Shown here: positions 14,277 to 56,609 of the stretch, piece by piece
How the letters are laid out: the number at the start of each line of letters is the position of its first letter
How positions within the stretch are numbered: position 1 is the stretch's first letter
Source: an uncultured delta proteobacterium
GTDB taxonomy: Bacteria; Myxococcota_A; Polyangia; Polyangiales; Polyangiaceae
NCBI GenBank assembly: GCA_963731595.1
Contig: CAVSWE010000003.1
Location: 172,948 to 236,947 of the forward strand
DNA: 64,000 nucleotides
Reading direction: 5' to 3'
Notes under the pieces: generated by a model
Told to the model about the DNA's origin: nothing
Databases searched by the model: none
What the model saw: the letters and a program-made list of their open reading frames with translations, nothing else
Translations under genes and position numbers: made by a program

Positions 14277-17200
14277 ATGACGCGCGTTTCGCTTGCACCC
14301 TCGTCCAGCCTCCCGGCGCCCCCGCGCCGGCGGCGCCGAGGTCCACGCGTCGGGCGCGCCCTCGCGCGCGCGCTGTCGCTCGTTTTGGCGCTCGCGGGCG
14401 TCCTTCCGCTCGCGGCGATCGGCTTCGTTCGCTCGGCCTACGCGCGCGAGTGGGCGATGCGCGAGACCGCCAAGGCGCTCCGCGAGCAGGGGATCGTGGC
14501 GCGTTTCGACGTCGTGCCGCATTTGTGGCCGCTCTCGCTCGAGCTCGCGAACGTGCGCATCGACTCGTCCGACGGCGGCGGTCCGGCGCTCACGGCGCGC
14601 AAGGCCACGGTGCACCCGCGCTTTTTCGCCCTGATGAGCGGCAAGCTGCTCATCCAGCAGATCGACATCGAGGCGCCCCATGCGCGCATCGTTCTCGCGC
14701 ACGGCGAGCTCCGGAATCTCGCCGTCAAGCTGCCGGAGTCGAAGCAGAAGTCGTCCGGACCTCTGCATCTGCCGTTCGACGGCTTTTCGATCACCGACGG
14801 CGACGTCGACCTGACCATCGACGACGTCCGCGTCCAGGCGCACCAGCTCGATCTCGACGTGCAGAACGAGGACGACGCCGAGCGCGGGTCGTCGCTCGAG
14901 ATTGCGCTGCGCGCCGGCGAGAGCTACGTCGTGCGACACCGCGGCACGGACGGCGCGGGCGCGTTCGACGAGGACGCGATTCTGCTCGCTCGACGCGCGC
15001 GTGCGGCTCACGCCCGACGAGGTCGCGGTGCGCCGCCTCGAGCTCCACGGCGCCGCCGACCTGGACCCGGGCGCGAACACGACGCCCGCGTGCCGCCTCG
15101 CCGCCGACGACCCGCGCCGCGTGGAGCTCGAGCTGAACCACGCGCGCATGCGCCTGCCGAAGGACGGCAACCCGCCGGACGACGCGAGCGGTCACGTACG
15201 CGCGCGCGCGCCGATCGCGATCGCCTCGCGCTTCGCGAAGACTCCGAGCATCGGCGGCTGGGCGGGGATCGACGCCGACGTCCGCCTCGCGCCAGGCATG
15301 CAGCTCCCCGAGGTGACCGGCAAGATCACCGCGGGCGACGTGCGCGTCGAGCAGTTCCACTTCGCCGACTCGGTCGACGCCGAGATCGCGATCGCGAACA
15401 ACGTCGTCCGGAGCTCGAGCACGATCGTCAAGCTCGCCGGCGGCACGGTGCGGCTGAAGGGCGTGCACGTCGAGCCGCTCGCGATGACGCTCGGGGCGTC
15501 GGCGGACATCGACTCGATTGACTTCGCCGAGCTCATGCGCGCGCTCGGCGTCGCCGACCACCCGCACGTCGCCTGGGACGTCGTCGACATCCACATGCCG
15601 AATTTCGGCGGGTCGCTCTCGCCGCTCAAGCTCGACGGCGACTTCACGACGACGACGCGCAACTTCGCGGTGTTCGATCGATGGCTGAAGGACCCCGCGC
15701 GGCAGCGGGTCATCGGGTTCAACGAGGCCAAGCTCTCCGCGCACCTCGCGGTGCGTCCCGACTCGGTGCAGTTCAAGAACGCGCGCGGGGACACGGGCCG
15801 GACGCACGTCGAGGGCGGGTTCGTGCTCCTCGGGTTCCACAACGATCTCCGCGTCGACGTGCCGAAGGCGCACGTCGATCTCGCCGACATCACGCCGCTC
15901 GCGGGCACGTCAATCGCGGGCATCGCGGACGTGAAGGTCGCCGTCGGCCCGAAGATGAACGACCCGAAGGTGACCGGAGAAGGCAGCGTCAACGGGTTCT
16001 CGATCGCCGACATGGCGTTCGGAAACGTCACGCAGCTCAAAGCCGAGGTGACGCGCGCCGGCGAGGCGCAGGTGCTCGCGCTCTCGGACGTGAAGGCGAC
16101 GAAGAACAAGAGCACGTACGAGATGCCGCAGGGGCGCGTGCAGTTCGGCGGCGACGCGAGCATGAAGATGGACGCGTCGGTGCACGCGACCGTGCTGAAC
16201 CTCCGCGACCTGCTCGACGTCTTCAAGCTGAGCGACGACCCGCGCTTCGACGGCATCGACGGCAACCTCTCGGGCGACACGACGCTCCACTTCGTGCTCG
16301 GCGGGCCCGAGGACAAATGCGGCGGCGGCGCGATCTCCGCTGCACGCGAGCCCGCACCTCTCGGCGGTCGATCTCTTCGGCGAGAAATTCGACGACGGCG
16401 ACGCGGACCTCGACTTGCGCTGGCGCGACCGGCTCGCGGGCTTCCAGGGCGCCGATCTCGACGTGCACGCGTTCACGCTCCACAAAGTGCGGCGCGAGCG
16501 CGACGGCACGACGTTCGGCTCGCTCCTCGGGTCGGCGACGATCAAACCGGGCGGGATCCTGCGCGGGAACGTGGTCCTCGAGGGCGTGCCGCTCTCGCGT
16601 CTCCAGACGCTCGGCAAGATCGCCCCGGAGCTCGAGGGCACGGTCTCGGGGCTCGCGCAGGTGAGCGGGACGCTCGACGCGTTCACGGCGGACGCCGACG
16701 TCGACGTCTCGCCCATCCACGTGCGGAGCGCGGACCTCGGCGCGTCGAAGCTCCACCTCACGATGACGCAGCTCCCGTCGAAGGCGCGGATCGTGGGGCA
16801 CACGACGTGCGGCGGGCCGATCGGCGCGCAGTTCGACAAGGACGCGTACGTGAAGGACACGTCGTCGCACGGCGACTACGTCGTGAGCGGCGATCTCTTC
16901 GGCGGGCAGGTGCACCTCGATCGCGTCACGGCGTCGCGCGCCAGGCAAATGGAGATCTCCGGCGCGGTCAAGCTGCGTGACTTCGCGATCGCCTCGATCG
17001 TGAAGGCGCTGGGCAAGAACGAGGGCTCGCTCGCGAAGCTCACCGGGCAGCTCTCCGGCGACGTCACGATCGACCGGTTGCGTCAGGGCGACTACGCGTC
17101 GGCCTCGGCGAGATTCGTCCCGGCGTCGCTCTCGATCGAGCAGGACGGCAAGAAGCTCGTGCTGAAGCCGACGGGCGCGCCGATCGTGCTCGGCGGCGGC

Positions 17201-18703
17201 AAGGTGACCGTGCCGCCGCTCGAGCTCGATCTCTCCGCGGGCGAGGGCGTGACCGGCGCCGTCACGGTGCAGGGCGGCGTGCGCGATCCGTTCGGCGATC
17301 CGACGCTCGATCTCCGCGCCGATCTCGCGCCGGTGGATTTGTCGGTGCTCGCGGGCGTCGTTCCGAAGCTCGATCGCGCGAGCGGCTCGCTCTCGGGCAG
17401 CGTGCGCGTGACCGGGCGCGCGGGAGATCCCCAGGTCGACGGCGCGGCGAGCGTGCGCGCGAGCGAGCTCGCGATTCGCGGCATGCCCTCGCCGGTCAAC
17501 GACGTCGCGGTCGATCTGCGCGCCGACGCGTCCGAGGTGCGGGTGGCGCGCGGCACGGCGAAATTCGCCGGCGGCACGCTGGTGCTCGGCGGGCGCGTGC
17601 CGATCCGCAACCTCGGGCTCGGCAACGTCGAGCTGACGCTCGCGGCGCGCAACGTCCGCCTCGCGCCCGCGCAGGGCATCACCGCGGCGCTCGACGCCGA
17701 TCTCCAGCTCGCCTTCGAGGACAGCGGCCTCGACAAGCGGAAGCTCCCGCACCTCACCGGCGACGTCGTCGTCGCGTCGCTCGAGTACACGAGGCCGATC
17801 AACGTCGTCGGCGATCTCGGGTCGTTCGGCTCCGCGAAGCGCACCGACATCGAGACGTACGATCCGTCGCTCGACGCGATCACGATGGATCTCCGCGTCC
17901 GGGCGAAGACGCCGCTCCGCATCAAGAACAACCTGGTCGAGGCGCAGATCGCGCTCGACAACGCGCTCGTCGTCTCCGGCACGAACCAGCGCTTCGGCTT
18001 GCGCGGCGAGATGCACGCGCTGCCCGGCGGGCGGCTGCGGCTGCCGTTCGGGACGAGCGTGTTCGACATCCAGCAGGCGATCATCCGGCTCGACGACCCG
18101 ACGCGCATCGCGCCGCACGTCGACATCCAGGCGACGACCGAGTACCGCCGCACCTCGGCGCAGAGCTCGAGCGGCTCGAGCTCGACCGGCAGCGCGACGG
18201 GCTCGACGTGGCGCATCGCGCTCCACGCCTACGGCGACACGAACGATCTCAAGATCGATCTCACGAGCGACCCGTCGCTCCAGCAGGAGGACATCGTGCT
18301 CCTCCTGACGGTCGGCATCACGCGCGCCGAGGCGGACCAGATCCAGGCCGGGACGCTCGGCGCCGGCATCGCGCTCGAGGCGCTCTCGACCATCACGAAC
18401 GCGTCGACGGCGGTGAAACAGGCCGTCCCCGTGATCGACGACTTCGGCTTCGGCAGCGCGTACTCGCCGCGCACCGGGCGCAACGAGCCGACGGTCACGG
18501 TCGGCAAACGCATCACGAGGAACGTGAGCGCGAACGTCTCGACGACGGTCTCCGGAACCAACGAGCTCTACGCCAACGTCATGTGGAGGCTCGGGAAGAA
18601 TTTCAGCGTCAACGGCTCATACGACAACGTGAACAATCAAGTAACATCCAGCGCGGTCGGGAACCTCGGCGTCGACTTGCGGTGGAGAGTTGAATTCCAA
18701 TAG
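14277..18703 (+). CDS. TamB-like translocation and assembly module protein (AsmA-like N-terminus, DUF490 C-terminus), with two apparent +1 frame shifts.
   Basis: N-terminal TM anchor (LSLVLALAGVLPLAAIGFV), long beta-rich repetitive body, C-terminal DUF490-like region. The reading frame moves 0 to 1 near 14950-15000 and 1 to 2 near 16320-16340 (a GGCGGCGGCG tract). All three segments have good coding composition. Confidence 0.8.
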
Positions 18704-21700
18704 AGCGCTGCTGATCCTCGCAGTCGCGATCGCGATCCTGATCGACGGGGGACGTGCGCGCGCCGGCGCGCCGATCAGCGTGACGCCGCTCGAGGTCCCG
18801 CCGGTCCCGAGGCTGAACCTGGGCGCGCCGCGGACGCCCCCGGCGCCGCCGGATTTGACCGCGTTCGTGGGCAAGCCGGTGCGTGGCGTCGACGTCGTGC
18901 AAGAGAACGATCCGTGGGACGACATCCCGCCGCCGGCGCTGAAGTCGGTGCGGGTCGGCGAGCCGTTTCGCGTCGATCTCGCGCGGGCGGCGCTCGTCGA
19001 GGCGCTCGCCACCGGGCTCTTCGGCGAGGCGCGGGTGGAGGTGCTCCCCGAGGGCGACGGCGTGCGGGTCCGCGTGCGCGCGGTCCCGCGTCGCATCATC
19101 GACTCGCTCCGCGTGGACGTGCACCGCGCGCCCGTCGACCGCGAGGAGATCCTCCACGAGGCGCAGCTCGAGGAGGGCGGCGAGCTGCTCGGAGACGAGA
19201 TCGTCCTACGAAAGCGACGGATCCGCGCGCTGCTCGCGCGACGCGGCTTCCCCGACTCGCGCGTGGACATCACGACGCGCCAGACCGACAAGCCGACGCG
19301 CGTGCTCGTCTTGCTCGACGTGGGCGCTGGCGAGCCGCGCAAGGTCGGACGGCGCGTCTTCTACGTGTTCGGCGCCAAGCCGGACGACCTCGCGCAGCAC
19401 ACCAAGACGTACGAGGTCGACGCCGGCGATCGCGCCGACGAGACCGCGCTCCAGCAAGCCGACGTCGCGCTCGAGGCGCGCCTCCGCGCGGCCGGCTACT
19501 ACGACGCGGCGGTCAAGCACGACCTCGTCCTCGCGCGCTATGCGGTCGCCGGATTCTTCTGGAGGCGGCGAGTCGGTGGTCACGCTGCGCGTCCGGGTCG
19601 ACAGCGGCCCGCGCTACTTCACGCGCTTCGAAGGCAACGAGCGCTACGACGCCGGCACCTTGCAGACGGCGCTCGGTCTCGACAGCGATCCCGACACCGG
19701 CGAGCAGCACCTCGCGGAGAAGCTCCGTCGCTACTACGTCTCGCGCGGTTTCCTCGACGTGCAGATCGCCTACGAGCTCCGCGGGCGGAGCACCGATCCG
19801 ACGCGCTACCTCGTCTTTCGCGTGCGCGAGGGTCATCGCGTGGTCGTCTCGACGCGCGACTACCCGTGCGTGCACCCGCAAGACATCGCGCACCTGAGCG
19901 CCGGCGGCCCGTCGTCGGCGTCCGCGATCGGGCACGAGATCGACAGCTTCCTCGACGAGGATCTCCCCGGCGCGGATTTCCTCGCCGACCCGGACCCGCG
20001 GATCGTCGACCACGACCTCGGCGGCGGGAGCGGCTCGCGGGCGGTGCCGATCGATCTCGACCCCAACGCGACGTTCGCGCCCGACACGTACGACAAGGGC
20101 GTCGCGCACGTGCAGGATCTCTACCGAAACGAAGGCTTCTTGGGCGCGCTCGTCGGGCCGGTCCAGGTGCTGCGCCGGCGCTGCGATCCGCGCTCGCCGC
20201 CCGGCCGCTGCGTGCCCGTGGCGTTCAGTCAGCCGCTCCCGGACGCGTGCACCTTCGATCACAGCGGGCTGCCGCTCGCCGTCGCGCCGCTGGATCCGAG
20301 CTTCACGTGCGTGCCCGACCCCGCGCGCGGCGTCGAGTGCGAGCCTCGCGTTCGGCTGCGCATCCCCATCAAGCTCGGCCCGCGCACGTCGCTGCGAGAC
20401 ATCGCATTTTTCGGGGCGAAGTCGATCAGCGAGACGGAGCTCGCCGAGGCGGCGGACTTGAAGCCGGGGACGCCGGTGAGCGCGCTCGAGATCGACGAAG
20501 CGCGCCGTCGCATCGCCGACCGCTACCGCGAAGACGGCTTCTTCTACGCCGACGTGAAGTACACGCTCGAGCGCTCGCTCGACAACACGCAAGCGCGCGC
20601 GCGGTTCGACGTGATCGAGGGCGAGCGCGTCCTCGTCGGGCAAATCGTCATCCAGGGAAACGCGATCACCAACGAGTCGGTGATCCGCCGGCGCATCGCG
20701 CTCGAGGTGGGCAAGCCGTACCGCACGAGCGACGTGCGAAAGACGCAAGAGCGCATCGCGACGCTCAACGTCTTCACGAGCGTGAGCGTCGCCCTCCAAG
20801 ACCCGCAAGTGCCGCAGCACGAGAAGACGGTGATCATCACGGTCACCGAGAAGCCGACGCAGTACATCGAGCCGTCGCTCGGCTTCTCGAGCGGCGAAGG
20901 CGCGCGCGGCGCGCTCGAATACGGCTACACGAACCTGTTCGGCAGCGCGATCAGCGCGGTCGTCCGCGCGCGCGTGTCGTACCTGCCGGACTTTCTGATC
21001 TCGGACCCGACGATCCTCGCGAACTTCCAGAAGCTCAGCGTCGGCGAGCGCATCGCCTACCGGCTCACGCTGTCGCTCGGCTTCCCCGACATCGGGCTCG
21101 GGCCGACGGCGCGCGGCAACTTCGACGCGGCGTTCCTGCAGGACGTCGAGCGCTACTTCGTGATCCTGAAGGGCGCGCTCATCCCGACGGTGTACTTCCG
21201 TCCGAGCCGGCAGCACGCCTTCTCCGCGACGGCGAGCTTCGAGTACAACAACCTCAACGTCTTCAACAACCAGACGCCCGCCGAGGTCGTCGCGCTGAAC
21301 AACAACAACCTCGACGTCGTGCGACTGCTCCGCGCGCCCGAGGGCCAGAGCGCCGTCTTCTCGCAGCGCATCTCCTGGACCTGGGACCGCCGCGACAACG
21401 CGTTCAACGCGCACACCGGCACGTTCTTCAGCGTGAGCGCCGAGCACGTGAATTGGTTCCCGCTGGAGCTCCTGCCCAACCAGGCGGTGTGCGCGACCTG
21501 CCTCATGCTCCCGCCACCGAACCAGCCGCCGCCCAACGTGTCGCAGAGCGAGGCGCCGCTCGGCGGGCACTTCCTCAAGCTCGCGACGACGATTTCAGGC
21601 TATTTCCCGCTGCCGTTCCTGAAGAGCGTCACCTTCGCCGCCGAGCTCCGCGTCGGAGCGATCATCCAGCTCCAGTCGAGCTCGACCACGTACCCCGATC

Positions 21701-22092
21701 GTTTCTTCTTCATGGGCGGCATCGACTCGATGCGCAGCTTCCAGCAAGACAGCATGCTGCCGCAGGACGCCGTCGATCTGATCGCCCAGGGAAAGCTCAC
21801 CGCCGCGCAGGTCGCGATCCGCGGCGGCAACCTGCTCGTCAATCCGCGCGCCGAGCTTCGCATCCCGATCTCAGGGCCGTTCGAGACGGTGCTCTTCGTG
21901 GACGCGGGCAACCTCTGGCAGGACGCGACGTATCCGCTCGACCACGGGATCTCGCTGCGCGTCGCCGCGGGGACGGGCGTTCGTCTGCAGACGCCCGTCG
22001 GCCCGCTCGCGCTCGACTGGGGCTTCAACCTGACGCGCCACGATCAGTACGAGGACATCGGCGCGCTGAACTTCGCGATCGGTTTATTCTGA
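18690..22092 (+). CDS. Omp85/BamA-family outer-membrane protein (TamA/BamA-like, multiple POTRA domains plus beta-barrel), with one apparent +1 frame shift near 19550.
   Basis: Signal peptide RALLILAVAIAILIDG. POTRA-like repeats (VTLRVRVDSGPRYFTRFEGNERY). C-terminal barrel ending ...ALNFAIGLF (aromatic terminal residue). The TTG start overlaps the tamB stop region. Confidence 0.85.
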
Positions 22093-22225
22093 CGCTCCAC
22101 GGCCGACGACTCGCGCTGTGTTGTGCAAGCGAGCGGCAGCGTGAAGTCGCGGCCAGGCCGCCGCCGTGCGCCATCGGTCGCCCATTGACGCGAGGCGTCC
22201 GGCGATCTCACGAGTTAGGCCTGTT

Positions 22226-22588
22226 CTAAGCCGGCTGCGCGTGCACGCCGTTGGCGCCGACGGGGCGCGCCTTCTCGCGAATCTGGTAGATGCGCTTCTT
22301 CGTGAGGAGCTCGACCCACTCGACCGTGACCCACACGGGGCCGATCGCGAGGTACTTGAGGTCGCGCGTGAACGACGGCTTCTTGCCCTCGAAGAAGTGA
22401 CCGACGAACTGGAACGTCCAACCGGTGCCGAACATCCCGAGGCCGACGGGAGGCGCGAGCGGAATGACCGGGAGCGACGCGACGATCATCGGAATGCCGA
22501 TCATGTGGCAGACCTTGTTGATCGGGTTCTGGTGGTCCTCGCCGTATTGGCGCATGTAATCGTGGAACGTCATTTTCTCGTCGGGCAT
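22226..22588 (-). CDS. DUF962 (Mpo1-like) membrane protein.
   Basis: YGEDHQNPINKVCHMIGIPMIV motif and TM segments typical of the DUF962 family; 120 aa. Confidence 0.7.
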   Translation of the reverse strand: MPDEKMTFHDYMRQYGEDHQNPINKVCHMIGIPMIVASLPVIPLAPPVGLGMFGTGWTFQFVGHFFEGKKPSFTRDLKYLAIGPVWVTVEWVELLTKKRIYQIREKARPVGANGVHAQPA

Positions 22589-22656: not shown

Positions 22657-24234
22657 GTGCGTTTTCGCCGTCGCTCGTTTCTCGGAGGTGCCGCGTCGGT
22701 CGCGGTCGAGGCGTGCGTGCCCCCGAGGCCGCCGGCGGCTCCGGCCCTTCGCGTCGAGGACGTGCTCGGCGCGGCGCTCGACGCGGCCAAGCGCGCGGGC
22801 GCGGCGTACGCCGACGCGCGGGTCGTCACGCGGCGCGACCAGCACGTCGGGACGCGCGAGGACCACGTCGTGGACGTTGGCGACGACGAGTCGTACGGCG
22901 TCGGCGTCCGCGTGCTCGTCGTCGCGCCCGCGCTCGGCGGCGGGGCGACGCAGTCGTGGGGGTTCGCGGCGTCGGCGCGCGTGGACGAGGCGAGCGCCGC
23001 GCTCGCGGCCGAGCGCGCCGTCGCGATCGCGCGGGCCGACGCCGGGCCGCGCAAGCGTCCGATCGTCCTCGCGCCGGTCGCGCGCTACCGCGACCGCTGG
23101 TCGACGCCGCTCGCGATCGATCCGTTCGACGTCTCGATCGCCGAGAAGGCCGCGCTTTTGCGGGACGCGTGGGCGGCGGCGCGCGCCGTGAAGGGTGTAA
23201 AGTACATGGACGGCGGCGCGCGCGCGCTCGCCGAGGAGAAGACGTTCGCGTCGACCGAGGGCTCGCTGATCGCGCAGCGCATCGTGCGCGTCGAGGCTGG
23301 CTACACGGTGACGGCGACCGACGACGCCGGCGACGCGGTGACACGCGCGCACGAGCTGCCGCCGAGGCAAGCGGGCTGGGAGCACGTGGCGCGCTCGACG
23401 CTCCGGGCGGACGCGCGAAAAATCGCCGAGGACGCGGTCGAGAAGCTTCGCGCCCCGCGCCTCGCGCCGGGCAAGCGCGATCTCGTGCTCGCGCCGAGCA
23501 ACCTCTGGCTCGTCATCCACGAGTCGATCGGGCACTCGACCGAGCTCGATCGCGCGCTCGGCTACGAGGCGAACTTCGCGGGGACGAGCTTCGCGACGCC
23601 CGACCAGATCGGCAAGCTCGAGATCGCGCGGGACACGCTCGACTTCGTCGCCGACAAGACCACGCCGGGCGGGCTCGCGACCTCGGGGTACGACGACGAC
23701 GGCGAAAAGACGCAGCGGTGGAAGCTCGTCGAGCGCGGCAAGCTCGCGGCGTTCCAAACGACGCGCGAGCAGGCGGCTTGGATCGGCGAGAAGCGCTCGC
23801 GCGGCTGCTCGTACGCCGAGGACTGGCGCTCGGTGCCGTTTCAGCGGATGCCGAACGTGTCGCTCGCGCCGGCCGAGCGCGACGTGTCGCTGGAAGACTT
23901 GATCGCGGGAGTCGACGACGGCGTGCTCGTGAGCGGCGACGGGTCGTGGTCGATCGATCACCAGCGCTACAATTTTCAGTTCGGTGGGCAGACGTTTCAT
24001 GCGATCCGCGGCGGCAAGCTCGCGGGCGCGCTGCGCGACGTGGCCTACCAGTCGAACACGATCGACTTCTGGCACGCGTGCGACGCGGTGGGCGGCGCGC
24101 GGCACGTCGAGCTCCACGGGACGATGGTCGACGGGAAAGGCGAGCCCGAGCAGTCGAACCCGGTGAGCCACGGCTGTCCGCCGGCGCGTTTCCGCGGGAT
24201 TCAGGTGCTGGACACGAGCGGGAAGAAGCCGTGA
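22657..24234 (+). CDS. tldD: TldD-family zinc metalloprotease with an N-terminal Tat-type signal.
   Basis: HESIGHSTELD zinc motif. 525 aa. N-terminus MRFRRRSFLGGAASVAV resembles a twin-arginine signal. Confidence 0.9.
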   Translation: MRFRRRSFLGGAASVAVEACVPPRPPAAPALRVEDVLGAALDAAKRAGAAYADARVVTRRDQHVGTREDHVVDVGDDESYGVGVRVLVVAPALGGGATQSWGFAASARVDEASAALAAERAVAIARADAGPRKRPIVLAPVARYRDRWSTPLAIDPFDVSIAEKAALLRDAWAAARAVKGVKYMDGGARALAEEKTFASTEGSLIAQRIVRVEAGYTVTATDDAGDAVTRAHELPPRQAGWEHVARSTLRADARKIAEDAVEKLRAPRLAPGKRDLVLAPSNLWLVIHESIGHSTELDRALGYEANFAGTSFATPDQIGKLEIARDTLDFVADKTTPGGLATSGYDDDGEKTQRWKLVERGKLAAFQTTREQAAWIGEKRSRGCSYAEDWRSVPFQRMPNVSLAPAERDVSLEDLIAGVDDGVLVSGDGSWSIDHQRYNFQFGGQTFHAIRGGKLAGALRDVAYQSNTIDFWHACDAVGGARHVELHGTMVDGKGEPEQSNPVSHGCPPARFRGIQVLDTSGKKP

Positions 24235-25566
24235 GCGCGAAGGGCTTCGCGATCGGCGACGAGCTGCTCGAGCTCGCGGCGCGCGCGGGCGCCGACGCGG
24301 TCGTGTCGGTGCGCGAGGTGCGCGAAGGAAACGTGCGCTTCGCGGCGGGCGAAATCACGACGGCCGGGGAGAGCGCGACGACCGAGATCTCGCTGTCGCT
24401 CGGGTTCGGGCAGCGTCACGCGAGCGCGTCGACCAATCGAGTCGATCGTGAGTCGCTGCGCGCGCTCTCGGACCGCACGGCGCGGATCGCCCGCGGCGCG
24501 CCGGAGGACCCCGAGCACCTGCCGCCGCTCGCGCCGCAGCGCTACCCGCGAAACCCGCGCGCCTGGGACGAAGCGACGAGCGCGCTCGATCCCGCGTGGC
24601 GCGCGGCGGCGGCGCGCGCGGCGATCGCGCGGGCGGAGGAGAAGTCGCTCGTCGCGTCGGGCTTCGTCCACGCTCGCGCCGTCGAGGCGACGCTCGCGAC
24701 GAGCACGGGGCTGCGCGCCGAGCACCGCGCGACGTGGGCGCGCATGACGACGACCGCGCGCACGCCCGACGGAAAAGGCTCGGGATGGGCCGGCGCCGAG
24801 GCGACGCGCGCCTGCGGAGATCGACGCCGGCGCGCTCGCGCGCGTCGCGGCCGATCGCGCCGAACGCTCGCGCGGAGCCACGAAGCTCGACCCGGGCCGC
24901 TACACGGTCGTGCTCGAGCCCGCCGCCGTCGCCGATCTCCTCTCCTTCTTGCTCGACGCGCTCGACGCGCGCGCCGCGGACCAAGGCCGCTCGTTCTTCT
25001 CCGGCGCGCACGGCAACCGCGTCGGCGAGACGCTCTTCGACCCGCGCGTCGTCCTTCGCTCGGACCCGCTCGACCCCGCGACGCCGGGTTGCCCGTGGGA
25101 CGGCGACGGCCTGCCGCTCGACCCTGTCACCTGGATCGACCGCGGCACTCTGACGAGCTTGTATTATGCACGTTACTGGGCGCGCAAAACCGGGCGAAAA
25201 CCGACGGGCGCGCACGCGACCTTCAGCCTCTCGTCGGCTACGCCCGGCGCGGCCACGCCCGCCGCGCTCACGCTCGGTGTCCACCGCGGCCTGCTCGTCA
25301 CGCGCTTCTGGTACACGCGCTGGCTCGACCCGAAGCAGCTCCTCGTGACCGGCCTCACGCGCGACGGCGTCTTTCTCATCGAGGACGGGCGCGTCGGTCG
25401 CCCGGTGAACAACTTCCGCTTCAACGACTCTCCCGCGAAGATGCTCGCGCGCCTCGTGGGCATGAGCGCGCAGACGTTCCGCGCGCCGGTCGGCGGCTCG
25501 ATCGTGCGCGTGCCTGTCGTCGCCTGCGACGACTTCGAGATGGCCAGCGTGAGCGACGCGGTCTGA
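24231..25566 (+). CDS. PmbA/TldE-family protein (TldD partner), with an apparent +1 frame shift near 24810.
   Basis: The GTG start overlaps the tldD stop. N-terminal PmbA-like region in frame 0 and C-terminal region (GRYTVVLEPAAVADLL...FWYTRW...) in frame 1. The switch sits at a CGCGCGCC tract. Confidence 0.75.
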
Positions 25567-26510: not shown

Positions 26511-26514
26511 AGCC

Positions 26515-29449: not shown

Positions 29450-32286
29450 TTACTTCGGGTTACTTGCAGCGCACACCAGCGTGAACGGCTCGCCGCCGAG
29501 CGAGTACGCGGCGGGCCCCAGAACGATGCGCTCGGGGCGTTGTGGATCGTCCTCGACGAGAGCCCGGAGCCGATGGAGCGTCACGCGGATTCGGTTCCCG
29601 TCGTGGAGCGGGTGAAACGCGCGACGCTGCCAGACCTCGCGCGCGAGCTCCTCGAACGTGGCGACGCCGTCGTGGCGCGCGAGCACCTCGAGCACGCGCG
29701 CGAGGAGCGCGTGCCGCGCGAACGAGACGCGCCGCCCGTCCGGGAGCCACGCCGTTCCCCGTCGCAGATCGAGACCCCAACCGCGCCGGTGCGGCGCTCC
29801 AGCGCGCACGCGCACGAGGTCGATCGACGCGCGCGCGCGGGCGGCCGCGAGGACGCGCTCGTCGGCGGCGTCGAGCGAGGCGGAGTCGTTCGCGAGCAGC
29901 GCGCGCGCGCGGCGCGAGGCCTGTGGCGCGACGTCTTCCGAGACGGCGAGCTCCTCGAGCGTCGCCGCGTCGATCGGCGGCTCGTCGACGAGCGCGACCA
30001 GCGCGCGCGCCTCGGATTCGAAGCGCGCCGAGGTCATCGTCGACGCTTTGCGTGCGACGTTTCGCGCCTCGACGAGCGCGCGCCGCGGCTCGCCGCCGAC
30101 GAGCAGCGCCTCCGCCAGGAGAAGTCGCGCCTCGCACTCGCGGACGCCCCAGCCGTGCGTCGCGGCGACGTCGACCGCGGCGCGCGCGTCCTCGATCGCG
30201 TCGCGTCCGGCCACGAGCGCGTCGGTCGCGAGCACGAGCGAGCGCACGATGCGTCCCTCGACGTCGAGCGGGTCGGGCAAGTCGTGCGGCTCTCCCCAGC
30301 GCGCGCGCCGGAGCGCCCGGCGAAGGGCGAGCAGGCTGCGCGCGACCGAACCGACCGGCGACCCGTCGAGCTCGAGCGGGAGCTCCTCGCGCGACGCGCG
30401 CAGGATCGCGAGCCGCTCGCGCGTGTCGAGGCACCAGCCGTGAACGAGCGGATTTTCGGCGCGCGTCGTCGCGAGCAGGTCCTCGAGCGCGCGCGGCACG
30501 TCGGCGAGCGCGCCCGCCGCGATGCGTCGCTCGAGGTCGAGGAGCCGCGCGATGATCGCGTACGTGCCGCCCGACGGCGAGCCGCGCAGCAGGCGCCCGA
30601 GCGTCTGCTCCGCTTCGTCGAGCTTCCCCCGCGCGATGGAGAGGTTCGCGATGCCGTCGAGCTGCACGTACGACGCGTGGAGCTGATCGTTGGTGTCGAG
30701 CGTCGCGCGTCCGGCGGTGAGCTCGTCGTGCGCGCGCTCGAGGTGCCGCACTCCATGAACGCGGCCATGCGGTAGTAGCGCACGAAAAAATCGAGCGGTC
30801 CGCCGAGGATCTCGTCGGCGAGCGCGGCCTTCTGCGGCGCCCCGCGCGCCAGGGCCGAGCGCTCGAGCGTTCGGATCGCCTCGTCGACGCGCCCGACCTC
30901 GGCGAGCCAGAAAGAGCGCAGCGCGGCGACGATCGCGCGCGTCGCGGGCTCCGCCGGCGCGGCGTCGTCGAGGAGCTCGAGCCCGCGCTCGGGGCCCGCG
31001 TGGACGCGCGAGGCCATCGCGCGCTCGAGCGCGGCCCAGAACGCGATGGTCTCGTCGCCGCTCCGCTTCGCGGTCTCCCAGAGCGACTCGGCCGCGGCGG
31101 CGGCCTCGGGCAGCTTCGACTCGACGTAGAGCGCGCGAACCCAGAGCAGCCGATCGCGGAGCGCGCCCGGGGGCGGCTCGTCGAGCAGGGCCGTGACCTT
31201 CACGCCGGCGAGCTGCATCGCCGCGCGCAGCTTGAACGCGCTCCACGCGTCGCCCTCGCGGCTCGCGAGGAGCTTCCACAGCGCCGCGGCGTGGCCCGCG
31301 GCGAGCATCGCGTCGAACGAGCGCTCGCACACGGCGAGGGCGCGCGCTTCGTCGCCGCCCTTCAGCGCGAGCCGCAGCGCCTCGAGCGCGTCGGCGTCGC
31401 CGCCCGACGCGAGCGCCGCGATCGTGCGCGTGCTCTCCCGCTCGCCGCCGACGAGCGCCGAGACGGCCGTCCGCGCTTCCTCGTGCAGCCGGTAGCCACC
31501 CGCGACTGCCTCGACGAGCCCGCGACGAACGAGGTCGTCGACCGCGTCTCCGGGGTCGGCGCCGATCGCGCCCGCGAGCGCGCCGGTCGAGATGGGCCGC
31601 TCGACGACCGAGAGCGTCGCGAGCAGCGACTTGCCGGCGTCGCCGACGCGCGCGCTGCTCCGCTCGCTCGCGAGCATTCGCGCCTTCCACGGCGAGCCTG
31701 CCGCCTCGCGCGCGATGCGCGCCGCGTCCGACGCGGGGATCTTCGGGTCGACGATGCGCGCGAGCTTGGCGAGGTGTCTCTCGCCGAGCGGCACGAGTCG
31801 AACGATCTGCCCGGCGAGCTCCGGCGCGTCGGGCTCCACGCGGCTCGTCGCGAGCCAAACCGCGCGCCGCGCGTAGCGCGCGACGGCGGCGAGCACGGGG
31901 GTCGCTTCGGCGAGCGCGTGATGCACGTCGTCGAGCAAGACGAGCGCGCGCCGCGCCTCGGCGAGATCGATCGCGACGAGGCCGAGGTCCGCGTCGGCGC
32001 GCGGCTCGGCGTGCCCCAGCGCGCGGACCACGTCGGCGAGCGCCTGCCGAAACGGCTCGCCGGCGCGCGCGCTCACCATGACCGCGGGTCCCGCGCGCTC
32101 CGCGAAGAGCTCGCGCACCGCGGCCGACGCGAGCGCAGTCTTGCCGAGCCCGCCCGGGCCCGCGAGCACGACCACCGGCCCGCGCGCGTGCGCCCGCGCG
32201 ATCGCGCGCAGCTCGTCGCGCCGCCCGACGAAGGTCGCAGGCGCGTTCGGCACACGCCAGGCGAGCGGCACCGTGGCTCTCCGCAT
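29450..32286 (-). CDS. Large transcriptional regulator (AAA+/NB-ARC-like ATPase, TPR-like helical region, C-terminal OmpR/PhoB-type winged helix), with an apparent frame shift near 30745.
   Basis: Walker A VVVLAGPGGLGKTA near the N-terminus (track ORF 30034..32286). C-terminal ATFEELAREVWQRRAFHPLHDGNRIRVTLHRLRALVEDDPQRPERIV (trans_reg_C-like) in track ORF 29450..32617. The two frames join at about 30745. Confidence 0.7.
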
Positions 32287-33023: not shown

Positions 33024-34666
33024 ATGATGCGTCGCGACGGCATTTGGCGCGCGGGCGGCTGGTTTGCGATTCCGGCCGGCGCCGCGCTCTTCGCAAAGAC
33101 GCTGGCGACGCCGCTCTTCCGCGACGATCTGCTGCAGCGCGCGATGTCGCTCGGAGCGTACCCCGCGCCCCGCGGCGCGTTCGACCTCTACGACTTCGTG
33201 CGCCCCGGCGAGCGCGCGGGCTTCGTCGCGTCAGGCGCGCTGCCTTGGTGGGCCGCAGACGATTTCAGCGTGAGGTTCTTTCGGCCGCTCTCGTCGGCGA
33301 TGCTCTTCGTGGAGCATCGCTTCGTTGGCTCGCCGCTCCTCATGCACCTCCTCTCTCGATTTGGTGGGCGGCCGCGGTCAGCGCCGCGCGGTGGCTCTTT
33401 CGAATGGTGCTCCACGAGCGCGCCGCGACCGTCGCGACATGGATCTTCGCTCTCGCGCCATGTCACGCTTTGTCGCTGGCGATGCTCGCCCAACGCGACG
33501 TACTCGTGGCGACGACCTTCAGCGCGCTCGGCATCGCCTTCACCGTGAGGCCCAAGGGGGCCGCCCGGATCGTGTCGGCTGCATTCTTCGCGGTCGCGCT
33601 TGCTGCGGGCGAGTACGCGCTCTGCTTCGGCGGGTACGTCGTCGTCTGGGCACTCGCGCAGCCGACTGCGGCCGCGCGCGCGCGCGCGGCGCTGCCCTTC
33701 GCCCTCCCCGCGACGATCTACCTCGTACTGCGCACCGCTCTCGGCTACGGAGCCATCGGCACGGGTTTTTATCGCGATCCGTTTCATTCGCCGCGACAGT
33801 TCTTCGTGCACGCGCCACGTTCGCTCCTCGTCCTGTGGGCCGACGCGTGGACATCGTTCGACGCCTCGCTTTGGCCGCTCCTCGGGCTCATCGCCGTCGG
33901 GGCAGCGCTGCTCGGATTGGTGTGGCTCGTTCCTCGACAGGCGCGCTGGCTGGCGGCCGGCTCCCTCGTCGCGGCGCTTCCTCTGGTCGCCTCCACGCCC
34001 GGGCAGAGGCTCACCGCGCCCTTGCTCGTCGGAGTTGCAGGCACGCTCGGGTGGCTCGTCGACGCGGCGATCGCAAAGCCCGTGCGACTGCGCTTCGCGG
34101 CGGCTGCGGCGGCCGGCATCGTGCTGGACGGCGCGTTCGCCGCGCGGTCGTCTCTGCAGGAAAGCGCGACGTATCGAGGGCAGGGCGAGAGAGGCCGGTC
34201 ACGCGCCGCGTCGCTCGAGGAGCAGCTCCGCAAACACGACCCGAGTACCGTCATCGTCGCGCTCGGCAGCTGGGAGTCCGCGTTCTTCGGGCTCGTGCTC
34301 GCCTCGCCGTCGACGCCGCGGCACATCCCGTGGCGAGTGCTCGTGACCGCTCGCCATGCGCTCGTGCTCCGCGTCGACGATCGCACCGCGGACGTCATCG
34401 TCCCGATGGGTCAAGGTTTTTTTCCTCTCGGTGCGGACGATATCTTCCGAAGCGAAGACGACGCGCTGCACGCCGGCGACGTGCGCGAGGTACCCGGAAT
34501 GCGCGCGGAGGTCCTCTCCGACGGTACGACGACGGCCCCGCGGGTTCGCTTCAGCTTCGCGCGCTCGCTCGACGACCCATCTTTCCTTTTGCTCTCCGAA
34601 TCACGCGCCGCCTACCGGCCCTTTCCTGCTCCGGCGCAGGGCTTTGGCAGGCCGCTTTCGCCATAG
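33024..34666 (+). CDS. Polytopic membrane protein (putative glycosyltransferase-like), with an apparent -1 frame shift near 33350.
   Basis: N-terminus in frame 0 (...PWWAADDFSVRFFRPLSSAMLFVEHRF...). The rest is in frame 2, with more than 8 predicted TM helices and a C-terminal soluble domain. Confidence 0.55.
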
Positions 34667-47867: not shown

Positions 47868-49105
47868 GCTACCGCGGGATCGCGGAGTGCCGCATCTGCG
47901 GCGGCTCGAACCTCGTCACGGTCCTCGATCTCGGCCAGCAAGCGCTGACGGGCGTCTTCCCGGACGCGAAGAACCCCGAGGTCGAAGTCGCGCCGCTCGA
48001 CCTCGTGAAATGCGACGGGCCTGGCTCGTGCGGGCTCGTGCAGCTGCGGCACACGTGCGAGCCGTCGCAAATGTATGGAGCGAACTACGGCTACCGCTCG
48101 GGGCTCAATCTCTCCATGGTCGAGCACTTGCGCGCCAAGGTCGCGCGCCTCGTCGAGCTCGCGCCGCTGGCCCCTGGCGACGTCGTGCTCGACATCGGCA
48201 GCAACGACGGGACGACGCTCTCGTCGTATCCGAGCACGGCGAAGCTCGTCGGCATCGACCCCACGGCGGCGAAATTCCGCCAGTATTACCCCGAGCACGT
48301 CACCGTCGTGCCGGACTTCTTCTCGTCCGCTCGCTTCCTCGATGCGAGCGGCGGCGCGCGCGCGAAGATCGTCACGTCGATCGCGATGTTCTACGACCTC
48401 GAGCGCCCGATGGACTTCATGCGCGACGTGTTTGCCTCGCTCGCCGACGACGGCGTCTGGCACTTCGAGCAGAGCTATCTCCCGTCGATGCTCGACGCGC
48501 TCTCGTACGACACGATCTGCCACGAGCACCTCGAGTACTACGCGCTCGCGCAGATCCAGTGGATGGCCGAGCGCGTCGGTTTTCGGATCGTCGACGTCGA
48601 GCTCAACGACGTCAACGGCGGCTCGTTCGCGATCACCGCGCGGAAAGGTCGCAACGGCGCCGCTTCGCCGCGCGTCGCGGAGCTCGCGGCCGCGGAGAGG
48701 ATGCGCGCGCTCGACACCCTCGCGCCCTACGAGAAATTCGCGTCCGACGTCGCGCACCACCGCGACGAGCTGCGCGCCCTCCTCGGGCGTCTGCGCGACG
48801 ACGGCAAGCGCGTCTTCGGCCTCGGCGCGTCGACGAAGGGCAACGTCCTCTTGCAGTATTGCGGCTTCGGCGTGCGCGAGCTCGCATGCATCGCCGAGGT
48901 CAACCCCGACAAGTTCGGCCACGTCACCCCCGGCACGAACATCCCGATCGTATCCGAGGCGGACGCGCTCGCGCGCGCCCCGGATTATTTCATGGCGCTC
49001 CCGTGGCATTTTCGGAGCACGCTGCTCCGCGCGCACGCGAGCTTCCTCGAGCGCGGCGGCAAGATGATCTTTCCGTTGCCGCGTCTCGAGATCGTCGGGG
49101 CATGA
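47864..49105 (+). CDS. Sugar C-methyltransferase (TylCIII/NovU-like: zinc ribbon, SAM methyltransferase domain, C-methyltransferase C-terminal domain).
   Basis: N-terminal CRICGG...C...C zinc-binding region. [10 protein letters not shown] (motif I). A C-terminal domain typical of NDP-hexose 3-C-methyltransferases. ATGA overlaps at both ends. Confidence 0.8.
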
Positions 49106-49993
49106 AGCGAGCGGCCGTCATCGGCTGCGCGGGGCAAGACGGACGCCTCCTCCGCGAGCGCCTCTCGAAGGAAGCGGAGGTCGTCGGCGTGGATCTCGGC
49201 GACGTCGACCTCGCGGAATCCGGCGGCGACGACCGCGTGGATCGAGCGCATCGCGCCGGACGAGCTCTACTACCTGGCCGCGCACCATCACTCGGCCGAG
49301 GCTCTTCCGGACGACGCGAGCGAGCTCCGCGCGTGCACCGCCGTACACGTGACGTCCTGGGTGAACGTGCTCGACGCGCTCCGGCGGCACGCGCCCGCGT
49401 GCCGCGCGTTCTACGCCGGCTCGTCGCACATGTTCGGCCGTCCCGCGGTTTCGCCTCAAAACGAGACGACGCCGTTCGCACCACGAAGCCCGTACGCGAT
49501 CACGAAGGTCGCGGGCGCGCACGTCGCCGCGCTCTACCGTGACCGCGGGATGCACGTTTCGGTCGGCATCCTCTACAATCACGAGTCGGCGCTTCGCGGC
49601 CCGCAGTTCGTCTCGCAACGAATCGTCCGCGGTGCGAAGCGCGCGGCAAACGATCGCACCTTCGAGCTCGTGCTCGGCGACCTGTCCGCCGTAGTCGACT
49701 GGGGCTGGGCGCCCGACTATGTCGACGCGATGGTTCGCATTCTCGCGCAGCCGGCTCCGGACGATTACGTCGTCGCCACCGGGACGCCGCACTCCGTCCA
49801 GGACTTCGTGGCGAGCGCGTTCGCCTGCGCGGGCGTCGACTGGCGTTCGCGGGTGGTGGAGGATCCGACCATCGTCAAGACGAAGGCGCTCCCACTCGTC
49901 GGCGACTCGACGAAGCTCCGCGCACGTACCGCCTGGGCGCCTACGGTGACGTTCGAGGAAATGGTGAAGCAGCTCGTGCAAGGTGGGCAGTGA
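49105..49993 (+). CDS. GDP-4-keto-6-deoxy-sugar reductase/dehydratase family (Rmd/DmhB-like), with an apparent +1 frame shift near 49235.
   Basis: N-terminal [17 protein letters not shown] in frame 1. The rest is in frame 2 (...PDELYYLAAHHHSAE...SPYAITKVAG...). Confidence 0.75.
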
Positions 49994-50964
49994 CGTGAAC
50001 CTCGATCGGGTGGCGAGCGTGGCGACCGAGTGGCTCCTCCAGAAGGACGCGGAGACACGTGCGAGGGCGCGCGAGAGCAATCCGGAGCACGCGCGCTTGG
50101 TCCAGCTATGTCTCCGTGGCGCTGACGAACGACTCGACCTCCTCGGCGACGTCACGGAGCCCGTAGTCGCGCTCGCGTCATCCGCCGCGTTGCGCGAGGC
50201 GACGCTGCTGCTGCTCGAAGCGACGGGTTCGCGGAGCGGGCCGCTCGACGCCGTCGCAGAGCTCCGTCGCACCTGCGAAGAGCTCGCCGTTCCCGCGGGG
50301 ACATGCAGCGCAGCAGCGCGCTTGCTCGTCGACGACCCGCTCGCGCTCTCGGGTCTGGCGTCAGCGGATTTCGGTCCGTTCTGCGCTCGCCCTCGAGCAC
50401 GTCGCACGCGCGCTCCGCGCGCACCTCGACGGCCGAACCGCGTCGCGCATCGTGCGTTCGCGGCGCTTGCGCGTGGCGCTCCTCGCGGCGCTGGCCCTGT
50501 ACGGCGTCTTCGCGCTCGGGCTCGCCGTGTTCGGGCGCAAGAACATCGCACGCGGCAAGCCCGTCCTCATGAGCAGCGTCGACGGGGCCAGTGCCCCACC
50601 GCAGATGCTCGTCGACGGCGTTCGGTCCGCCGACACCAAGCCGGGCTCCCCGAAGCCGGACGTCGTCTACACGCGCCACGAGGCGCATCCCTGGGCGCTC
50701 GTCGATCTCGGGCGCGAATACAACATCCGGGAGGTGCGCCTGTACAATCGCGACGACGGAGGCTTCGACGACGGCCTCCCGTACATCGTCGAGTTCTCGT
50801 TCGACGGCCACACGTTCTGGGAAGTCGGCCGCTGCGAGACGCACTTCGGGAGTTGGTGGATCGACCCGCCCTGCCGTGTGCCGTGCGACCGGCGCACCAC
50901 GCGCTTCGTCCGCGTCAGCGCGACGGGTTACCTCGCGCTCAGCGAGATCGAGGTGTTCCCTTGA
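49983..50964 (+). CDS. Second membrane-anchored F5/8 type C (discoidin) domain protein, paralog of 43488..44366, with an apparent +1 frame shift near 50395.
   Basis: GTG start overlapping the upstream stop. N-terminal ~135 aa in frame 0. TM LRVALLAALALYGVFALGLAVFG plus discoidin ...WALVDLGREYNIREVRLYNRDDGG...FSFDGHTFWEV...RFVRVSATGYLALSEIEVFP in frame 1. Confidence 0.55.
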
Positions 50965-52715
50965 ACCGCCTCCGGCTCGCCGAGTGGCAGCGTCCTTTGC
51001 TCGCCATCTTTCTGACGCTGCTCACGCTGCGCATCACGGCCTATTTCTTCGCGATCCTGAACGACAACTTTCTCCACGCCGGCCTCGAGTACGACGAGAG
51101 CTATTTCGTGTGGTGCGGGTGGATGATCAACAAGGGCTTCGCGCCGTACCGCGACTTCCTCGAATTCAAGCCGCCGATGACGTTCATCACGCACGCCATG
51201 GCGCTGAAGCTCTTCGGGTTTCATGAGTTCGGCTACCGGAAGTTCTTCGCCTATTTTCCGCTGGGGTCCCTCCTCGCGCTGCAGCTCGCGATGTTGTCGC
51301 GCCGAATCGACCGGTGGCTCGCGCTCGCCCTCACGATCGCGTTCATCCAGATCTGGCTGAACCCCACCTTTCACGACGTGGCGCTCTCGGACTCGGAGTC
51401 GATCGGGCTCGCGTACTACCTGCTCGGGGTCGCCTGCCTGTTCGCGCGCACGCGCTTTCGAACGACGCTCCAGTGGTTGGGTGGGGCGATGTTCGCCTGC
51501 TCGATCTTTTCGAAGGAGCCGTTCTTGCCGTGCGTGGGCATGACGTGGATCAGCCTTTTCCTGCTGGGGGACGAGCCCGGGACGTTCGCCGTGCGTGCGC
51601 GCCGCTACGCGGGCCGGACGATCGGCGGCGGGCTCGTCGTGCTCGCCCTGCTGTGCGCTTACATGATCCCGAGCGGCGCGATGCGCGCGTACCTCGACGT
51701 CCTGCACCGGTACTTCCACTTCTACCGCGACGTGAAGGAGTCGTATTGCGTCGTCCTCGGGCGCTTTCATCCGACGGTGCCGTTGAACGACCTCCACATG
51801 CAGTGGCGGCAGGCGCGCGCCTCGTTCGCGAACTCGACGAACCTCGGCTTCCTCGCGCCGTTCGCCGCAGCCTCGATCGTGTTCATCTGGAAGCGCTCGC
51901 GCGTCCTGTTCGCGACCGTGCTCATCGGCGTAGGTTCGGCGCTCTGGGCCGTGACGGCGAGCAACTGCCAGTGGGCGCACTACTACACGATGACGATGAG
52001 CGGTCTCTTCTTCGCGCTCGTCGTGGGCCTCGATTCGCTCACGCCGCATTTCCGCGCGATGAGCCGCGCGTCGCGGGTGTTTCTCTCGATCGCCATGCTC
52101 GGCACCGTGCTCCTGCACGACTGGGTTCGCTTCGACGCCGAACGCGACAAGTACGGCACGCGGACGGCGCAGGAGTTCAAATCGAAGGAGCCCGTCCCCG
52201 GCGTGTTCGAGGCCGTGCAGCGGTACACGACGCCGGCGGAACGCATCGTCACGACCGGTGCGCCGAGCCTGTACATGCAAGTCGATCGGATCGACGGCAT
52301 GCGCGAATCCACCACCGACGACGAGGTGCTCGGCTTCTACAGTGGCGCCACGGACGAGGAAAAGCTCAGCAGCGTTAGAGCCGAGCTACTTCGTAGCCGC
52401 CCCAAGCTGATCATCCTCGACTCGTCGCCTTCCGGCGACGGGCGCAAGCGCCGCTGGCGCGCCGCGCTGTGGGACCCCTTCTTGCACGACTTCCATTATC
52501 GCGAGATCAAACCTCGCATTTACGTCCGACCGGATCTGATCAGTCCGGTCGGCGCGCGACGACGACGGCCTGCACGAAGAAATCCTTCGGCCCGAAGTCG
52601 TACGAGACGAGCTCGAGGCCGCCCGAGGCGAGGAGCTTCGAAGCCTCGCTCTTGGAGTGCACCAGCGACGGCTCCGGCGGGTGCAGTCGGACGTTCTTCG
52701 CGAGCACGTCGTTGA
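50961..52715 (+). CDS. GT-C-fold glycosyltransferase (ArnT/PMT-like, GT39/GT83 family); 3' end uncertain.
   Basis: TTG start overlapping the discoidin stop. First periplasmic loop LEYDESYFVWCGWMINKGFAPYRDFLEFKPPMTFI (DE motif and EFKPP, as in ArnT/PMT). More than 10 TM helices. The last ~60 aa are Arg-rich, so the true stop may lie nearer 52530. Confidence 0.7.
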   Translation: MNRLRLAEWQRPLLAIFLTLLTLRITAYFFAILNDNFLHAGLEYDESYFVWCGWMINKGFAPYRDFLEFKPPMTFITHAMALKLFGFHEFGYRKFFAYFPLGSLLALQLAMLSRRIDRWLALALTIAFIQIWLNPTFHDVALSDSESIGLAYYLLGVACLFARTRFRTTLQWLGGAMFACSIFSKEPFLPCVGMTWISLFLLGDEPGTFAVRARRYAGRTIGGGLVVLALLCAYMIPSGAMRAYLDVLHRYFHFYRDVKESYCVVLGRFHPTVPLNDLHMQWRQARASFANSTNLGFLAPFAAASIVFIWKRSRVLFATVLIGVGSALWAVTASNCQWAHYYTMTMSGLFFALVVGLDSLTPHFRAMSRASRVFLSIAMLGTVLLHDWVRFDAERDKYGTRTAQEFKSKEPVPGVFEAVQRYTTPAERIVTTGAPSLYMQVDRIDGMRESTTDDEVLGFYSGATDEEKLSSVRAELLRSRPKLIILDSSPSGDGRKRRWRAALWDPFLHDFHYREIKPRIYVRPDLISPVGARRRRPARRNPSARSRTRRARGRPRRGASKPRSWSAPATAPAGAVGRSSRARR

Positions 52716-55199: not shown

Positions 55200-56609
55200 A
55201 TGATCCGCATCGAGTTCGTCGGCGCCGCGCAGACCGTCACCGGGAGCAAGCACCTCGTCCACACCAAGCACGCGACCGTGCTCCTCGACTGCGGGCTCTT
55301 CCAGGGGCGGCGGCGCGAGTCGTACGACGTGAACAAGAACCTCGGGTTCCGCGCGAGCGACGTCGACGTCGCGGTGCTCTCGCACGCGCACATCGACCAC
55401 TCGGGCGCGCTGCCGATGCTCTGCAAGAGCGGGTTCGACGGGACGATCTACGCGACGCCCGCGACCCGCGACCTCTGCGCGGTGATGCTCGAGGACGCCG
55501 CGGCCATCCAAGAACAAGATGCAGATTACATCAATCGCGCCATCGAGAAGGAGCACGCCCAGATGGAGCGCGTCGAGCCGCTCTACGAGGCGCAAGACGT
55601 CGTGCGCGTGCTCGAGCGGATGATCTCGGTGCCGTACGCGCGCACCGTGCCCATCGCCGACGGCGTGAAGATCACCTTCCACGACGCGGGCCACGTGCTC
55701 GGGAGCGCCATCACGGTGCTGGACATCGAGGACGAGGGGACGAAGAAGCGGATTCTCTTTACCGGCGATCTCGGGCGAAATCACATCCCGATCCTGCGCG
55801 ATCCGGAGAACGCCGACGGCGTGAGCGTGCTCGTCAGCGAGAGCACGTACGGCGACCGCCTGCACCCGCCGCTCGAGGCGATGGACGAGGCGCTCGTCGA
55901 TCTCATCGGGCGCGTCTCGAAGCGCGGCGGCAAGATCATCATGCCGTCCTTCGCGCTCGAGCGCGCGCAGGAGATCGTCTACGCGATCAAGCGCCTCCGC
56001 GTGAAGGGCCTGATCCCGAACATGCCCGGTCTACGTCGACTCGCCGCTCACGGTGAAGATCACCGACGTCTTCAAGATGCACCCCGAGTGCTTCGACGAG
56101 GAGACGCGCGCGCTCATCGCGAGCCGCGAGTCGCCCTTCGAGTTCGAGAACCTCCGCTACGTCTCGGAGCGAGAGGACAGCAAGGCGATCGACGCGAGCC
56201 ACGAGCCGTGCATCATCATCTCGGCGAGCGGGATGTGCGAGGCGGGGCGCGTCGCTCCATCACCTGAAGGCGAGCGTCGAGGACCCGAAGAACGCCGTCT
56301 GCATCGTCGGCTTCCAGGCGCCGCACACGCTCGGCAGGCGAATCGTCGAGCGGCGGCAGCGCGTGAAGATCTTCGGCGTCGAGCGCGATCTCCGCGCCGA
56401 GGTCGTCGTGATGAACGGCTTCTCCGCGCACGCCGATCAAAAGGACCTGGTCGCGTACGCCGAGCACACGCGCGACACCGGTCAGCTCGAATCAGGTCAT
56501 CTTGGTCCACGGCGAGCCGGGCCCGCAGCGCACGCTGAAAGAGAAGCTCGCCGAGCGCGGAATCAAGAAGGTGAGCAACCCCGCGCCGGGCGACGTCATC
56601 GAGGTGTGA
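55200..56609 (+). CDS. MBL-fold metallo-hydrolase of the RNA-metabolising beta-CASP family (RNase J/CPSF-like), with three apparent +1 frame shifts.
   Basis: HAHIDHSGALP (HxHxDH), DAGHVLGSA, and the beta-CASP C-terminus ...GFSAHADQKDL...VLVHGEP. The frame moves 0 to 1 (~56030), 1 to 2 (~56300) and 2 to 0 (~56490). Confidence 0.75.

Follow-up and report, generated by a model that had tools for sequence, protein, structure and literature searches.

True bacterial pseudogenes, as in reductive genome decay, can arise by frameshift. On the Oxford Nanopore Technologies (ONT) R10.4.1 platform, purine/pyrimidine ambiguity occurs beside a modified A, with RA/TY as the minimal motif (Lohde et al. 2024, Genome Res 34:2039, PMC11610573). 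The Microflora Danica (MFD) long-read catalogue of metagenome-assembled genomes (MAGs) is nanopore-only and was built by Flye assembly with one Medaka round (Sereika et al. 2025, PMC12313526); its authors checked the genomes for errors typical of nanopore data and linked reduced coding density to low coverage, low GC content and long homopolymers (>6 nucleotides (nt)). Here we analyse single-base frame changes in a 64,000-nt stretch of DNA from an uncultured member of the Polyangiaceae (assembly GCA_963731595.1, contig CAVSWE010000003.1, positions 172,948 to 236,947; hereafter the window), in which TamB, PmbA, an Omp85 protein, a beta-CASP nuclease and six other genes change reading frame within their coding sequence. 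We found 13 such events, 11 with an extra base and 2 with a missing base. Most probably (we put this at about 0.86), the window is a long-read, nanopore-type consensus that retains single-base errors at a density of around 2 per 10 kb, and the ten genes are most likely intact in the organism.

The window has a GC content of about 70% and a very strong GC signal at third codon positions. Frame switches were sought with a seven-state model of codon-position GC and a stop/start analysis of every same-strand switch, and each event was placed by nucleotide alignment to relatives (Table 1). At ordinary gene boundaries the upstream stop lay no more than about 17 nt from the switch, whereas at the suspect switches the upstream frame stayed open for hundreds of nt. 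The model and stop analysis together gave same-strand switches lacking a stop close by, at about 14980, 16340, 19563, 24813, 30751, 50386, 56028, 56255 and 56480, and the suspect plus-strand switches from the model all shift by +1. Direct reading of the frames revealed three further shifts (6725, 33350 and 49218). The model itself slipped in three places, putting a Pro-rich minus-strand gene on the plus strand at about 6727, mis-assigning a short segment at 49098-49241 and calling 32751-34701 non-coding.

An earlier note on this DNA had listed 12 frame changes, and every one is present, at or within about 15 nt of where it was put; most of the coordinates hold, with three ranges displaced by 5-15 nt (49225-49245 for 49217/8, 50380-50400 for 50371-50375 and 6740-6780 for 6725). 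Its total of '12 or more' is borne out by the 12 verified events, its list having lacked the thirteenth, at 52536, and its statement that most are +1 agrees with the 11 insertions and 2 deletions found here. It had also placed several events at short G/C repeats, which does not hold: the 16338 event lies 10 nt past GGCGGCGGCG, the 24814 event lies 3 nt past CGCGCGCC, and every event is a +1 or -1 change in a run of 1-3 nt. Given runs this short, we rejected a homopolymer-only error model. A phase-variable contingency locus working by repeat slippage was likewise set aside, there being no long homopolymer or tandem tract (longest run 3 nt), as was an RNA element as the cause at any site, since tRNA and Rfam scans gave tRNA-Lys alone.

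Table 1 Genes of the window that carry single-base frame changes, followed by other features
Feature	Position	Strand	Corrected length	Event or remark
GYF/DUF4339 Pro-rich protein	5161..7819	minus		extra base 6725 (GAATC on plus strand, GATTC on coding strand)
TamB	14277..18703	plus	1474 aa	extra T 14981 (GATC -> GATTC); extra C 16337/8 (GATCTC[C]GC)
Omp85/POTRA outer-membrane protein	18690..22092	plus		extra base, frame change within 19541-19565 (GGATTC at 19551)
PmbA	24231..25566	plus	444 aa	extra base 24814 (GCGCGCCT[G]CGGAGATC)
AAA/STAND-TPR regulator	29450..32286	minus		one base missing at 30745/6 (GAGGTG-CCGCAC)
Membrane protein	33024..34666	plus	547 aa	one base missing at 33352-33356 (CTCTC-TCGATT)
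Rmd-like / GDP-mannose-dehydratase-family reductase	49102..49993	plus	296 aa	extra A 49217/8 (GGATCC -> GGAATCC)
Discoidin (F5/8 type C) protein 2	49983..50964	plus		one extra base (G or T) within 50371-50375 (GGATTTCGGTCC)
525-aa protein	50961..52540	plus	525 aa	extra C 52536 (GGAT[C]TGATCA), directly before TGA stop
MBL/beta-CASP nuclease	55200..56609	plus	468 aa	extra bases 56024 (CCCG[G]TC), 56253 (GT[C]GCTC) and 56491 (GATC -> GAATC)
tRNA-Lys(CTT)	35506-35580	minus		sole RNA gene in the window by ARAGORN and Rfam
HD-domain protein	61591-62052
FAD-linked oxidase	62075-63478	minus

The nearest relatives are Polyangiaceae/Polyangiales MAGs. TldD, intact in the window at 22657-24231, shares 83%, 80%, 76% and 76% amino acid (aa) identity with L001, L002, L003 and L004, respectively, and gene order is conserved over window 12-35 kb; the species-representative genomes contain no 100% match. 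Among the assemblies compared, L001, L003, L081-L083 and L086 bear MEGAHIT-style or JGI (Joint Genome Institute)-style contig names, which point to a short-read origin; L002 and L004 bear Flye-style names and are members of the MFD MAG set. Stop-to-stop open reading frames (ORFs) and annotated genes of the relatives each correspond to between two and four frames of the window, and their query coordinates abut. At all 13 sites a single frame continues in L001, L003, L081-L083 and L086, as it mostly does in L004, and once corrected the proteins can be aligned to those six assemblies from end to end in a single frame.

TamB, in three frames in the window, is one ORF in L004 (1681 codons, stop to stop) and L086 (1469 aa), and each of its more than 100 homologues is one protein, 1433-1540 aa long, against 1474 aa after correction. 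Pfam searches of its uncorrected pieces gave N-terminal matches to DUF748 and AsmA below curated cut-offs and a C-terminal TamB-domain match above cut-off. We considered a TamB frameshift shared with L002 and rejected it, as the extra G of L002 is a different event, some 72 nt downstream from the one at 16338 in the window. Omp85 is one ORF in L003 and L004, with POTRA domains flanking the window's shift on both sides. PmbA is one ORF in L001, L003, L004 and L005; uncorrected, its Pfam domains 1-2 share a frame and domain 3 lies in the following one, and after correction the central domain PmbA_TldD_2nd is covered at model positions 19-108 of 109. The intact 885-aa GYF/DUF4339 orthologue in L086 follows frame -1 at 7819-6725 (residues 1-370) and frame -2 at 6723-5164 (residues 371-885), and removal of the base at 6725 yields ...MELSSSDLTSEGRLEVVK....

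Both genes with a missing base have their intact counterpart in L001. Its 978-codon ORF for the AAA-TPR regulator matches frame -2 at 32385-30745 and then frame -1 at 30745-29459, with a single gap in an alignment of 89% nucleotide identity, and residues 6-943 of the corrected protein align in one frame (the C-terminal Trans_reg_C match is weak, below curated cut-off). For the membrane protein, a 623-codon ORF spans the two window frames, and corrected residues 1-547 align in one.

The remaining genes find their orthologues in L081-L083. The 297-aa Rmd-like reductase of L082 matches frame 1 at 49102-49218 and then frame 2 at 49217-49984, and the corrected protein covers the Epimerase model at 2-240 of 240 in one stretch. 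The 276-aa discoidin orthologue of the same assembly follows frame 3 to 50372 and frame 1 from 50356; after correction the protein aligns in one frame, with F5_F8_type_C_2 above its curated cut-off and F5_F8_type_C just below. At 52536 the extra C abolishes the TGA stop of the 525-aa protein, whose ORF runs about 59 codons further to 52715, into a convergent glycosyltransferase/methyltransferase gene; L081, L082 and L083 all read ...CCGGAT-TGA, and the corrected length equals the L082 and L083 gene calls. None of the three extra bases in the beta-CASP gene occurs in L081, L082 or L083, and the corrected product is 98% identical to an intact 468-aa protein (P0001), covering the Beta-Casp model at 1-120 of 120 with a continuous RMMBL domain. 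A sugar-modification gene cluster, syntenic with L082, occupies window 44.3-54.0 kb and comprises GDP-mannose-4,6-dehydratase-like, C-methyltransferase, Rmd-like reductase, transaldolase-like and discoidin-domain proteins and a GT2/methyltransferase fusion.

These alignments bear directly on whether the frames were assigned correctly. At about 70% GC, every frame contains long spurious ORFs and apparent overlaps are easily misread, and the pieces might be separate adjacent or overlapping genes; yet single orthologous proteins cross each junction with abutting coordinates, single Pfam models cross junctions after a one-base correction, and the corrected lengths fit their families (TamB as above; beta-CASP 468/468; 525/525; Rmd-like 296/297). 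Such a reading is extremely improbable, and the single-frame orthologue alignments refute it, together with the earlier note's caveat that its own frame assignments might be wrong. The same alignments weigh on programmed recoding, that is, +1/-1 ribosomal frameshifting or transcriptional slippage through which full-length products would still be made. The direction of 11 of the 13 shifts (+1) and the GAWTC pentamer shared by five would suit it, but no relative shows a shift at any of the 13 positions, each reading through in one frame. In the tabulated plus-strand shifts the zero-frame stop comes only 237-2664 nt further downstream, and the shift sites therefore hold neither a stop nor a 'hungry' codon; slippery heptamers and long homopolymers are lacking, no heptamer is common to the contexts, and the three beta-CASP shifts are absent from a same-strain contig (see below). 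We give recoding next to no credence.

A more serious alternative is that some or all of the frameshifts are real, being very recent mutations or strain-level polymorphisms that mark young pseudogenes in the sequenced population. We judge this unlikely, beginning with the state of the genes themselves. Ten of about 55 coding segments would have been struck with no substitution-type decay: the ten corrected genes have a terminal stop only, with no internal stops and no other or larger lesions seen in any of them. Measured against L081, whose contig is 94.6% identical, the ratio of nonsynonymous to synonymous substitution rates (dN/dS) in the beta-CASP gene stands at 0.12 before the first shift and at 0.15 after it, and aa identity to relatives is as high downstream of the shifts as upstream. 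Purifying selection persists downstream of the shifts, and the signs of relaxed selection expected of a pseudogene (in-frame stops, deletions, dN/dS near 1) are absent from these genes.

A second assembly of the same strain offers a closer comparison. Two Logan contigs from run ERR11594406, found via exact-protein look-up, cover window 55392-59755 (L084, 4360 nt, 99.75% identical) and 18258-23528 (L085, 5271 nt, 99.94% identical, colinear) and thus 4 of the 13 sites. Three are not reproduced: L084 is without the insertions at 56024, 56253 and 56491, so that three shifts within 470 nt of the beta-CASP gene are missing from a near-identical sequence, which speaks against recent mutation. The fourth, in Omp85, is reproduced. 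Exact-protein look-ups for seven other window ORFs returned no same-strain contig, and a chimeric query of five junction-spanning segments was dominated by TamB homologues and returned no same-strain protein.

The two assemblies also differ by substitutions. Window and L084 show 11 differences in 4.4 kb, and 55.4-56.8 kb is error-dense in both, which suggests locally poor read support in that stretch. Across L084 and L085, 6 of 10 substitutions set GATC against AATC or GATT: all three in L085 are GATC in the window and GATT in the contig, two in L084 are GATC in the window and AATC in the contig, and one is AATC in the window (56740) and GATC in L084 and in L081-L083. Wherever they could be compared, outgroups have GATC, apart from a single outgroup that dissents at one position. 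The window further reads A at 55941, where L081-L084 read G, and A at 58856, where L082-L084 read C; together with 56740 these are probable substitution errors in the window itself. L084 for its part lacks one base in a GGG run at about position 384 (window 55775), where the window and all relatives agree, and this splits its beta-CASP gene at a place other than the window's breaks.

The Omp85 site is where real mutation has its best case. The frame change at 19541-19565 falls in a lineage-specific extra segment of 22 nt (21 nt plus 1) that is present in L085 and absent from L002, L003, L004 and L086, and that from its sequence looks like a 7-codon Gly/Ser-rich loop insertion with one extra base. 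Deleting one T gives RYAVAGSSGGGESVVTLRV. Were the shift an artefact, the site would read GGATCTTCTGG; were it real, it would read GGATTCTTCTGG. The segment shows that real indel evolution has taken place here, and the shift is identical in both assemblies of the strain, so that the majority of reads in that run apparently back it. An N-terminal Omp85 query found just seven distant matches, none informative on the 22-nt segment. That this frameshift is real, leaving a split or inactivated Omp85/TamA-like gene beside TamB, or more broadly that A/T duplications at GATC reflect a genuine mutational process at methylated GATC, seems to us less probable still than the young-pseudogene alternative.

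The 13 sites are enriched at GATC. Five lie inside GATC (null 4.2%, binomial P=1.3e-4), seven lie within 3 nt of one (null 9.1%, P=5e-5) and nine within 8 nt (null 16.5%, P=3e-5), P values that are only indicative because the hypothesis was formed after the data had been seen. At 6725, 14981, 49218, 56491 and probably 19553/4, an A or T inside GATC is duplicated, giving GAATC or GATTC, and at these five sites relatives or L084 show GATC or a sequence one base shorter. We dropped the CcrM-type motif GANTC as the context for this reason, the relatives and L084 pointing to GATC with a duplicated A or T. The enrichment of indels, together with RA/TY-type substitutions at GATC, ties the events to a known error-prone context, and a bias of this kind, with G/A and C/T miscalls at the same motif, points to the measurement and not to the genome, which counts further against recent mutation.

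Base composition predicts about 184 copies of GATC in the whole window, and there are 543; TCGA is present 851 times and CTAG just 14. Codon usage (GAT, ATC and GAG-ATC contexts) is the probable cause of the GATC excess, which would supply many targets for methylation-linked error.

The two nanopore MAGs among the relatives serve as a control. L002 has five frameshifts of its own (4230, 7779, 7962, 8216 and 11960) and L004 has one (8100); all six lie in TamB, Omp85 or PmbA, each inside or adjoining a GATC, and none shares its position with an event of the window. These genes are free of frameshifts in the assemblies with short-read-style names (L001, L003, L081-L083 and L086), and the defect therefore tracks assembly type and not lineage, again at odds with recent mutation. 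In L002 the gene call for beta-CASP, too, is truncated, to a 396-aa protein (P0030).

Several points weigh against reading the events as consensus errors. The link to GATC was noticed post hoc, and Omp85 is counted as a GATC site by assumption, leaving 4 of 13 inside the motif without it; four sites (30746, 33352, 50374 and 56253) have no GATC within 40 nt. The same-strain comparison covers four of the 13 sites, and in it the Omp85 shift is found unchanged. The Logan contigs were probably built from reads like those behind the window, may even share reads with it, and are hence not a fully independent check.

With these points weighed, consensus error remains the best account. The earlier note had held systematic indel error to be likelier than pseudogenisation, and we concur, given the intact orthologues, the lack of other decay, the beta-CASP insertions missing from L084, the enrichment at GATC and the shifts in related nanopore MAGs. 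Three things are inferred: the sequencing platform, the organism's methylation of GATC, and that the nine sites outside the same-strain contigs are artefacts. As a mechanism, the organism would methylate GATC, the modified adenine would distort the nanopore signal across neighbouring bases, and at modest coverage the consensus would sometimes keep an extra A, T or neighbouring base, or turn G into A or C into T. Errors at or next to GATC, about half of the total, could arise in this way; the others (24814, 30746, 33352, 50374, 56024 and 56253) would be ordinary +1/-1 errors in runs of one to three bases.

The bearing of these errors is practical only. Consensus indels lead gene callers to split or extend the genes concerned. 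Ten of the window's roughly 55 coding segments would be annotated as fragments, fusions or pseudogenes, among them TamB in three pieces, beta-CASP in four and the 525-aa protein with a 59-codon false extension, and such errors would raise pseudogene counts and lower completeness estimates and pathway calls. For nanopore-only MAGs of this lineage, an isolated GAATC or GATTC at a frame break is suspect, as is AATC or GATT where relatives have GATC, and methylation-aware re-calling or frameshift-aware correction is advisable before gene loss is claimed. There is no new biology in these results; what is of use is the list of 13 sites in its corrected form, along with an error signature tied to GATC. 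Towards the end of the window, at 60.7-64.0 kb, synteny with L082 stops (near 60.7 kb) and GC falls to 61-64%.

Set beside described systems, the locus resembles true pseudogenes in that single-base indels break conserved genes. It departs from them in having no nonsense mutations, deletions or rise in dN/dS, in the intact orthologues of a 94.6%-identical relative, and in the failure of three of the four sites with a same-strain comparison to recur. It resembles MFD MAGs (PMC12313526) in that isolated one-base frameshifts of the same kind occur in L002 and L004, although the error pattern described for that catalogue differs from the one seen here, where the DNA is about 70% GC and the indels fall in runs of 1-3 nt, often at GATC. 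Another parallel is the methylation-linked ambiguity of Lohde et al. (PMC11610573). Their paper covers substitutions, with no 'indel' in its text, whereas the window has mainly one-base insertions in or beside GATC, a motif that its organism would have to methylate for the comparison to apply. The substitutions nonetheless follow the same rule, with A/G miscalls directly 5' of A and C/T miscalls 3' of T, here turning GATC into AATC or GATT, and, as in that study, the errors vary between consensus methods applied to the same organism.

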